From a virus, in the UHGV virus genome UHGV-1620146: a stretch of DNA of 12,254 nucleotides; one strand, written 5' to 3'. The notes under the pieces were generated by a model. It worked only from the letters and a program-made list of their open reading frames with translations. It had not been told where the DNA came from and searched no databases. The position numbers and the translations under genes are program-made. The first letter of the stretch is position 1. Every line of letters starts with the position of its first letter. Positions 11,848 to 12,050 of this stretch are shown in pieces.

Positions 11848-11927
11848 TTTCCTGTTTGATTTACTGGACACTATAGAAGGACAGAATGCCTTCATCACTC
11901 GAATAACATCAATTAAGGAGGTTCAAC

Positions 11928-12050
11928 ATGTTTCATTCCACAAATCATCAGGCTGTAATTATGGCTGCATCAGCTTGTGCCACAGACCTTTTCCGCTTCA
12001 CTTTGAGCCTGATTCATTTCTACCTGACCGGCTCGCCTCTATCTTTTTAA
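11928..12050 (+). CDS. Hypothetical 40-aa peptide with consensus Shine-Dalgarno
   Basis: AAGGAGG at 11915..11921, 6-nt spacer, ATG at 11928, TAA at 12048. Translation MFHSTNHQAVIMAASACATDLFRFTLSLIHFYLTGSPLSF has a hydrophobic C-terminal half. Not in the ORF track because it is under 60 aa. Confidence 0.35.
   Translation: MFHSTNHQAVIMAASACATDLFRFTLSLIHFYLTGSPLSF

Follow-up and report, generated by a model that had tools for sequence, protein, structure and literature searches.

Tandem phage-polymerase promoters ahead of a 40-codon prophage gene: a candidate defence cassette in temperate phages of Escherichia coli and Klebsiella

In abortive infection and prophage defences, such as lambda RexAB, PifA of the F plasmid acting against T7, CapRel and PARIS, a resident element detects an invader and an effector acts at a cost to the infected cell. 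To our knowledge, it is a pre-existing protein sensor that responds to phage proteins, nucleic acids or host shut-off in the known defence systems. A related logic is proposed here for a small cassette found in the virus genome UHGV-1620146, of which a stretch of 12,254 nucleotides (nt), referred to as the window, was analysed. The window is a lambdoid, HK97-like Escherichia coli prophage, and the cassette consists of a 40-codon open reading frame (ORF40) preceded by two promoter-like boxes, two stem-loops and a consensus Shine–Dalgarno (SD) sequence. Like the prophage defences, it occupies a moron site on a prophage and evolves fast. In contrast to known defences, its proposed sensor is a DNA promoter, and its effector would be made only after the polymerase of the invader has read it.

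The layout of the cassette is shared with the promoter–leader units of the class III (late) promoters of the T7 supergroup, such as T7 phi10 and the scaffold/capsid intergenic regions of K1-5, TUN1 and FBKp16. Common to both are a 23-bp consensus promoter, a +1 G with a purine-rich start, a 5' stem-loop and an SD sequence (AAGGAG or AAGGAGG) near the ATG, and the capsid-gene leader of SP6 shows a similar order of promoter, stem-loop and SD. Unlike the class III units, the cassette resides in a temperate phage that lacks a polymerase of this kind, combines two specificities in tandem and carries a payload of 40 residues for which no homologue exists in the Autographiviridae.

Three further groups of systems invite comparison. 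'Triggered suicide', reportedly engineered in Lactococcus by Djordjevic et al. in 1997, used a phage-inducible promoter to drive a lethal gene, and the proposed function of the cassette likewise places a harmful gene under a promoter that only the transcription machinery of an infecting phage activates. That system is man-made and relies on a phage middle promoter and a phage factor together with the host polymerase, whereas the cassette is natural, widespread and equipped with promoters for single-subunit polymerases. In satellite–helper pairs, the genes of a resident element also remain silent until the transcription apparatus or proteins of another phage arrive: the late promoters of P4 are activated by Ogr of P2, and the SaPI, PICI and PLE elements are induced by helper proteins. 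Satellites, however, exploit the helper in order to spread and employ activator or antirepressor proteins with the host polymerase, while the cassette encodes only the 40-residue peptide and no packaging or replication functions. Finally, the peptide resembles type I toxins and small hydrophobic prophage peptides (the Hok, TisB, Ldr and Ibs/ShoB class) in its length of 38–40 residues, its single predicted helix and its net hydrophobic character, and differs from them in that neither an antisense RNA antitoxin nor homology was found and in that its proposed control is transcription by a foreign polymerase. A natural resident element with a gene under the promoters of an invader's polymerase was without precedent in the full-text literature searched, which left most subscription journals outside its coverage.

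Tandem promoters and leader hairpins

The 170 nt preceding the ATG were aligned in 21 distinct variants, and the two conserved, promoter-like boxes were tested against real phage genomes. The T7 matrix was built from 17 annotated T7 promoters, with the range of real scores obtained by leave-one-out, and the SP6 matrix from 13 promoter-like sites of the SP6 genome picked by their similarity to the consensus. The upstream box scores 22.4 bits as a T7-type promoter, compared with 22.0–38.7 bits for real T7 promoters, 3.8 bits for the next best site on either strand of the window and a maximum of 14.0 bits in 60 shuffles, and it is retained at 17.2–29.8 bits in all variants. Its counterparts are present in natural T7-like phages of 38–40 kb, where TCAATACAACTCACTAATGGGACAG (two contigs) is identical to the cassette site from −18 to approximately +4. 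Promoters of the ACTCACTAATGG type occur at least seven times in one T7-like contig of 38.5 kb, and the matching sites in Yersinia T7-like phages bear the annotation 'promoter'.

The downstream box reaches 28.1 bits as a K1-5/SP6-type promoter, the corresponding values being 13.8–34.7 bits for the SP6 sites, 6.6 bits for the next best site in the window and 15.9 bits for the shuffle maximum. From −19 to +7 its sequence is that of a K1-5 promoter, and matches with 93–97 % identity over 28–31 nt recur 6–9 times per genome in K1-5, K1E and many Vectrevirus records. One carrier genome (L472) contains a perfect SP6 consensus, at 36.2 bits. The related loci amount to 2.0 Mb, and the 353 sites in them that reach 16 bits all fall within the cassette or its partial duplicates. 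The K1-5-type promoter was found in 629 of 5426 complete E. coli genomes, in 628 of them together with the cassette flanks. Both sites display the sequence characteristics of T7-supergroup promoters, and these comparisons show the promoters to be genuine in sequence and confined to the cassette.

Approximately 13 phages exhibit a partial tandem duplication that comprises the promoter region and 66 nt of the 5' end of the neighbouring HNH endonuclease gene (e.g. L077, at ~2200–2500 and 1794–2213; also L164, L166, L171, L173, L204, L215, L245, L252, L264 and L270). In the duplicated arrangement, four phage-polymerase promoters precede one reading frame, and the SD and ATG of the copy proximal to the HNH gene are destroyed at the junction.

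The carrier itself lacks a cognate polymerase, as seen in the complete genome of the Shigella phage SfIV, whose 54 genes include a Q-like antiterminator but none for an RNA polymerase. A scan for sigma-70 promoters upstream of ORF40 predicted none, which is weak evidence given the stringency of the scan. The sigma-70 candidates chosen by eye (TAACAT, TATAGA and TGGACA) were dropped, being unconserved between variants.

The predicted transcripts of both promoters begin with stem-loops. In hairpin 2, 100 % of the cells of the 21 variants are paired, with A–U to G·U changes tolerated on the plus strand only; in hairpin 1, 96 % of cells are paired and three pairs show compensatory double changes. 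Taken together, 97 % of cells in the two hairpins are paired, versus 36–58 % in slid controls. Every one-sided change yields a G·U pair on the plus strand and would yield an A·C mismatch on the minus strand, and since this pattern is valid on the plus strand only, the hairpins belong, by this covariation, to plus-strand RNA. The same pattern ruled out hairpin 1 as a protein-binding palindrome or minus-strand element, and the minus-strand CCTCCTT as an anti-SD element of the late mRNA was dropped because of it. Hairpin 2 is present in both the minimum-free-energy and the centroid fold, the latter leaving the SD free. A scan of positions 11200–12254 on both strands against Rfam, at E values up to 1, gave no match.

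Hairpin 1 copies a palindrome (approximately TTGTCTAACATGTTGGACAA) that is present in eight copies in SP6, two of them just 5' of SP6 promoters. The SP6 copies (L281; positions 491, 6262, 7069, 8545, 9381, 14253, 17750 and 30567) are mostly intergenic, often just upstream of promoters or strong SDs, and the prophage cassettes have copied the palindrome, which may act as an RNase III site, a pause or a terminator. The position of hairpin 1 at +4 and its identity with the SP6 repeat superseded its earlier assignment as the terminator of an upstream small RNA.

ORF40 as a gene and its product

The original prediction pointed to AAGGAGG, a 6-nt spacer and a 40-codon frame from the ATG at 11928, and both this arrangement and the peptide (MFHSTNHQAVIMAASACATDLFRFTLSLIHFYLTGSPLSF) are exactly as it described. 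On its own, the SD–ATG arrangement is weak evidence. AAGGAGG followed by ATG at a distance of 4–9 nt occurs once in the window, where 0.13 instances are expected by chance, and at least once in 25 of 200 shuffles; it is the comparison of copies that raises ORF40 above chance. Copies were collected with anchors independent of the reading frame (the HNH protein, a 20-mer in the Rz1 tail and an 18-mer upstream) as well as with an anchor in the SD region. All 118 full copies obtained with the 20-mer anchor, which excludes these elements, preserve the SD, the ATG and the 40-codon frame, and ORF40 is intact in 159 of the 161 pooled copies, so that the frame is not missing from otherwise identical regions of related prophages; nor is the SD part of a longer gene in another frame. 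The two exceptions are metagenomic copies with deletions. In one (L253, ~794–864; protein P0016), the loss of 43 nt (window 11993–12035) joins the N-terminal half of ORF40 to another frame, giving a 66-residue product; the other (L244) lacks 13 nt at window positions 12033–12045.

The pattern of substitutions divides the gene into two halves. Codons 21–40 and the stop have undergone 12 substitution events, of which 11 leave the ORF40 product unchanged (P ~2e-4), namely nine third-position changes, CTG>TTG and TAA>TGA, the twelfth being L>M. The same events are non-synonymous in 11 of 12 cases when read in the overlapping Rz1 frame, and the silent counts in the other five frames range from 1 to 9, the frame with nine being full of stops. 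Beyond the ORF40 stop, variation moves to the third positions of Rz1. When the window is compared with SfIV, the C-terminal half shows a ratio of non-synonymous to synonymous differences (pN/pS) of 0 (0 non-synonymous, 3 synonymous) at a divergence of 6 %. The N-terminal half bears no sign of purifying selection, its pN/pS being 3.0 (14.5 vs 1.5) and its divergence, at 28 %, threefold higher than in the flanks. The E. coli form differs from Kp4864-1 of Klebsiella at four nucleotides within the 16 shared codons, and all four differences are silent in the ORF40 frame and non-synonymous in that of Rz1, and the ORF40 frame is retained even where the overlapping Rz1 sequence is a mere relic. The hypervariability of the N-terminal half is what would be expected of a gene in conflict.

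Relatives of the peptide among 5.8 billion proteins are limited to 38–68 residues, the longer ones being upstream extensions or the deletion fusion. No longer parent protein was found in that set, and no family in Pfam, PHROGs or NCBIfam matched ORF40, which leaves the suggestion of a disrupted gene's remnant unsupported. Because the copies preserve the frame, the substitutions in the C-terminal half are silent and neither a longer parent nor a family exists, ORF40 is, on comparative grounds, a real gene under protein-level selection, with a fast-evolving N-terminal half. A tblastn search of the peptide against T7, SP6 and all 50,697 phage records returned no Autographiviridae homologue, PADLOC-DB v2 contained no family matching it at E values up to 10, and a search for related loci with the family alignment recovered E. 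coli copies only, with no added diversity.

AlphaFold2, supplied with a 16-member alignment, predicts one helix spanning residues 2–34 (mean predicted local distance difference test score, pLDDT, 83), followed by an invariant G-x-P-L-S-F tail; across the family, the invariant aromatic C-terminal motif reads ...H[FY]YLTGxPLSF. The best 19-residue hydropathy window lies at 1.4–1.8 in four of five subtypes, with values of 1.40 and 0.90 for the E. coli alleles and 1.4–1.8 for the Klebsiella forms, and a single-pass membrane peptide is plausible on the basis of these models. The toxin-like or membrane moron of the original prediction is upheld as a genuine, selected gene of moron type, its membrane-active or toxin-like nature staying a best guess drawn from the predicted helix. 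A lipobox or signal-peptidase site (AASA|C) in the N-terminal half was ruled out, as the Cys and Ala vary between alleles.

Genomic context and the Klebsiella counterpart

The positions of the cassette elements and of the adjacent genes are given in Table 1. The tandem promoters, the 5' stem-loops and the antisense Rz1 relic are features that the original prediction overlooked.

Table 1. Elements of the ORF40 cassette and neighbouring genes in the window
Feature	Position	Strand	Remarks
T7-type single-subunit RNA polymerase promoter, CAATACAACTCACTAATGGAGAG	11802–11824 (−17 to +6)	+	predicted +1 = G11819
Hairpin 1	11822–11851	+	13-bp stem; starts at +4 of the T7-type transcript; first detected by terminator scan
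K1-5/SP6-type (Vectrevirus/Molineuxvirinae) promoter, ATTTACTGGACACTATAGAAGGA	11859–11881	+	predicted +1 = G11876
Hairpin 2, GAAGG-ACAGAATG-CCTTC	11876–11893	+	starts at +1 of the K1-5/SP6-type transcript
Shine–Dalgarno AAGGAGG	11915–11921	+	identical in every full copy; left unpaired by the centroid fold of the predicted leader
Spacer TTCAAC	11922–11927	+	6 nt
ORF40	11928–12050	+	40 residues; ATG 11928, TAA 12048–12050; hypervariable N-half (codons 2–20), invariant C-half ending ...SLIHFYLTGSPLSF
Rz1/LysC-like o-spanin gene, 3'-end relic	11998–12117	−	aligns with the C-terminus of SfIV gp53
HNH endonuclease gene	11355–11705	−	left neighbour, start of the packaging module, outside the cassette; RefSeq annotation of identical DNA
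iss/bor, start	12232–12254	+	right neighbour, cut by the window end
Small terminase, P27 family	10735–11238	−	late operon
Large terminase	9005–10738	−	late operon
Portal gene		−	late operon

The spacer between HNH and iss is, as noted originally, AT-rich and divergent, with a GC content of 0.39–0.44 versus ~0.57 in the adjacent late genes and with HNH on the minus and iss/bor on the plus strand. This interval carries no RefSeq annotation in the complete genomes listed, and one phage record labels ORF40 'hypothetical protein'. In ON470607, ON470621 and ON470600, the position of ORF40 (the frame itself or an overlying feature) is annotated 'protein of unknown function DUF4347', which is probably an annotation artefact, as the peptide has no Pfam match. 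In the window arrangement, a phage polymerase reading the cassette would also co-transcribe iss/bor, and no strong terminator was found 3' of ORF40.

SfIV has the same spacer at 85 % identity, and the Rz1 relic, which ends in ..LDLNVSLLSAFWQCNLDKAGIKKIEASRSGRNESGSK*, is antisense to the last 17 codons of ORF40 (24–40). Homology with SfIV stops near 12117, and homology with a lambda-type bor module begins at ~12112–12116. The junction at ~12113–12117, beside bor/iss and the lysis module, marks an old recombination event in which the lysis cassette was swapped and the ORF40 cassette retained. The spacer is inserted in mosaic fashion, being absent from most phages whose HNH gene is 95–98 % identical; in many of these, Rz1 and HNH are directly adjacent. 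The cassette has the attributes of a moron, being inserted between conserved neighbours, oriented opposite to the late operon, furnished with its own signals, set apart by its GC content (0.41 versus 0.57) and missing from close relatives; in contrast to classic morons, whose signals serve the host polymerase, its signals are of a non-host-polymerase type. In the SfIV-like variants L044, L057, L191 and L221, ~350 bp of unrelated DNA separate the cassette from HNH. Elsewhere in the window (~8811–9005, minus strand), a small ymfR-like gene of 60 residues separates the portal gene from the large terminase, an arrangement shared with the e14 element of K-12.

The cassette is present in 632 of the 5426 complete E. 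coli genomes (11.6 %), including ST131, O157:H7 and ECOR29. Three E. coli plasmids of 35–112 kb (CP044351, CP088862 and NZ_CP146678), which may be phage-plasmids, bear it with 86–90 % identity beside a 'peptidase' gene. A translated search located the C-terminal motif in temperate phages of Klebsiella, in which a related cassette is found on hundreds of contigs. It occupies the same site, opposite to the late operon, between lysis and packaging genes and across the Rz1 tail or relic, and it is composed of the same parts. A palindrome of the SP6 type and promoter-like boxes are accompanied by a stem-loop that begins at +1, and a strong SD serves a reading frame of 38 codons whose N-terminal half differs from that of ORF40 and whose C-terminal motif is shared with it.

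The Klebsiella boxes (GAATTAGGGCCCACTATAG and TA[AT]TAGTGGCGAGTATAG) are unlike those of E. coli and were traced by BLAST of a 35-mer against sequenced phages. The former is identical to the scaffold/capsid intergenic promoter of the Klebsiella phage TUN1 (Przondovirus), and the latter matches the scaffold/capsid intergenic promoter of FBKp16 (Molineuxvirinae) and is repeated 6–8 times per genome in ~20 such phages. These sequence matches show promoter types that correspond to the lytic phages of each host genus, in front of a payload whose C-terminal motif is constant. A scan of viral contigs with the 15-mer TTAGTGGCGAGKATA returned nearly exclusively chance matches and was uninformative. The Klebsiella cassettes also contain an unplaced promoter-like box (AAGTTACACAATAGAAAT; AA(A/T)TAAGTTACACAATAGAAATC in L301 and L469, ~55 nt upstream of the ATG), which has 7–17 bits in the SP6 matrix and may represent a third specificity.

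Proposed role and alternative explanations

The reading favoured here, to which a probability of approximately 60 % is assigned from the sequence evidence, is that the ORF40 cassette is an abortive-infection-like defence whose effector peptide is transcribed by the polymerase of the invading phage. The temperate phage would keep the cassette silent in the lysogen. Infection by a T7-like or a K1-5/K1E/SP6-like phage (Autographiviridae) would lead to the synthesis of that phage's single-subunit polymerase, and this enzyme would recognize the cassette promoters at 11802 and 11859, their specificity serving as the sensor. The resulting transcript, with a 5' stem-loop and an exposed consensus SD laid out like the leaders of the invader's late genes, would support the fast and abundant synthesis of the 40-residue helical peptide, which may then harm the infected cell or the infection, most likely at the membrane, so that the yield of the invader would collapse and sister lysogens would be protected. 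The promoter wiring predicts activation specifically by phage infection, and the cassette is probably on only when such a phage attacks; transcription by the invader's polymerase in vivo, silence without infection and the action of the peptide are what we infer.

Several observations weigh against this proposal. The T7-type site is weaker in 40 of 160 copies (17.2 bits, −6 A>G), and the ORF of the cassette is disrupted by deletions in two copies. Hairpin 1 with its U-rich tail was scored as terminator-like and might stop T7-type transcripts before they reach ORF40, and a partial terminator role is possible. The sigma-70 scan was also blank before iss/bor, which needs a promoter of its own, and host transcription of ORF40 is therefore possible. 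The hypervariability of the N-terminal half could reflect relaxed constraint and recombination instead of an arms race. The moderate hydropathy of the E. coli alleles makes a membrane target insecure, and, as PADLOC holds no such system, there is no independent link to defence.

It is conceivable, if unlikely, that the polymerase of the invader does trigger the cassette and that the payoff is something other than suicide: the peptide could inhibit a specific phage or host protein (for instance the polymerase, or one concerned with DNA entry or lysis timing), or the run-on transcript could act, in sense through iss in the window and in antisense through the lysis genes in SfIV. All the promoter evidence fits this explanation equally well. 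The aromatic C-terminal motif resembles a binding motif and not merely a hydrophobic anchor, which, together with the modest hydropathy of the E. coli alleles, would suit a specific inhibitor, but no partner or target is named by the sequence. An acting transcript would be in keeping with the constant position of the reading frame at the end of the lysis cassette and with the lack of a strong terminator after it; against this, the DNA downstream varies with the carrier (iss in the window, antisense Rz1 in SfIV, other genes such as a Trypsin_2 gene in Klebsiella), and the peptide is the conserved element.

That ORF40 is an ordinary moron expressed in the lysogen, i.e. a small membrane protein made from a host promoter with the phage-polymerase promoters as passengers, appears improbable. 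Its location beside bor/iss is a classical moron site, its SD is strong, one phage record does list a hypothetical protein there, and the sigma-70 scan was too strict to rule out a host promoter. Passenger promoters, however, are difficult to reconcile with their retention in all variants and their replacement by host-appropriate types in Klebsiella, or with hairpins that begin exactly at the predicted +1 of one transcript and at +4 of the other. Moreover, the candidate −10/−35 hexamers near the reading frame vary between variants, and RefSeq is blank here in the complete genomes listed.

A neutral fossil, in which a scrap of Autographiviridae DNA was acquired by illegitimate recombination and the frame is open by chance, is very improbable. 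Lambdoid genomes are mosaic, the spacer is missing from many phages with a near-identical HNH gene, and hairpin 1 and the promoter-proximal bases do mirror the intergenic syntax of SP6 and K1-5. On the other hand, no single phage is known to use T7-type and SP6-type promoters together, and the leader and reading frame have no homologue in T7, SP6 or any sequenced Autographiviridae. Purifying selection on the C-terminal half and the compensatory changes in the hairpins largely refute this explanation, and neither the frequency of the cassette among complete E. coli genomes nor its presence with different promoters on the Klebsiella contigs agrees with it. Scarcely credible, finally, are a leader peptide or upstream reading frame regulating iss/bor, for which ORF40, on the iss strand and 180 nt before that gene, is suitably placed, and a type I toxin paired with an antisense RNA antitoxin, which it resembles in being small, helical and overlapped by antisense sequence: the leader peptide entertained in the original prediction fails because the downstream gene differs between carriers while the reading frame stays (iss is not downstream in SfIV-type and Klebsiella carriers, and constant linkage was tested and not found), and the toxin–antitoxin pair is contradicted by the lack of an Rfam match and of an antitoxin-like small-RNA promoter or terminator on the minus strand, the antisense sequence being the spanin gene or its relic.

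The chances are about even that the cassette represents a previously undescribed class of defence in temperate phages of Enterobacteriaceae, in which mimics of the late promoters of lytic Autographiviridae that infect the same host, often of several specificities in tandem, precede a minimal effector peptide, the polymerase of the invader is both sensor and executioner, promoter sets are swapped between host genera and the N-terminal half of the effector is under diversifying selection. Recognition of the invader would then require no sensor protein, merely ~23 bp of DNA that its polymerase unavoidably reads. This would be a new mode of phage detection, invisible to gene-centred defence finders and annotation pipelines. 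The cassette is common, and it is essentially unannotated in the complete genomes listed. The targets would be phages favoured for therapy, namely T7-like phages, K1-5/K1E and the Przondovirus and Molineuxvirinae podophages of Klebsiella, and the cassette could account for some unexplained failures of host range; carrier strains should also tolerate T7-polymerase expression systems poorly. The split between a pN/pS of 3.0 and one of 0 within 40 codons offers a compact model for a micro-protein arms race.

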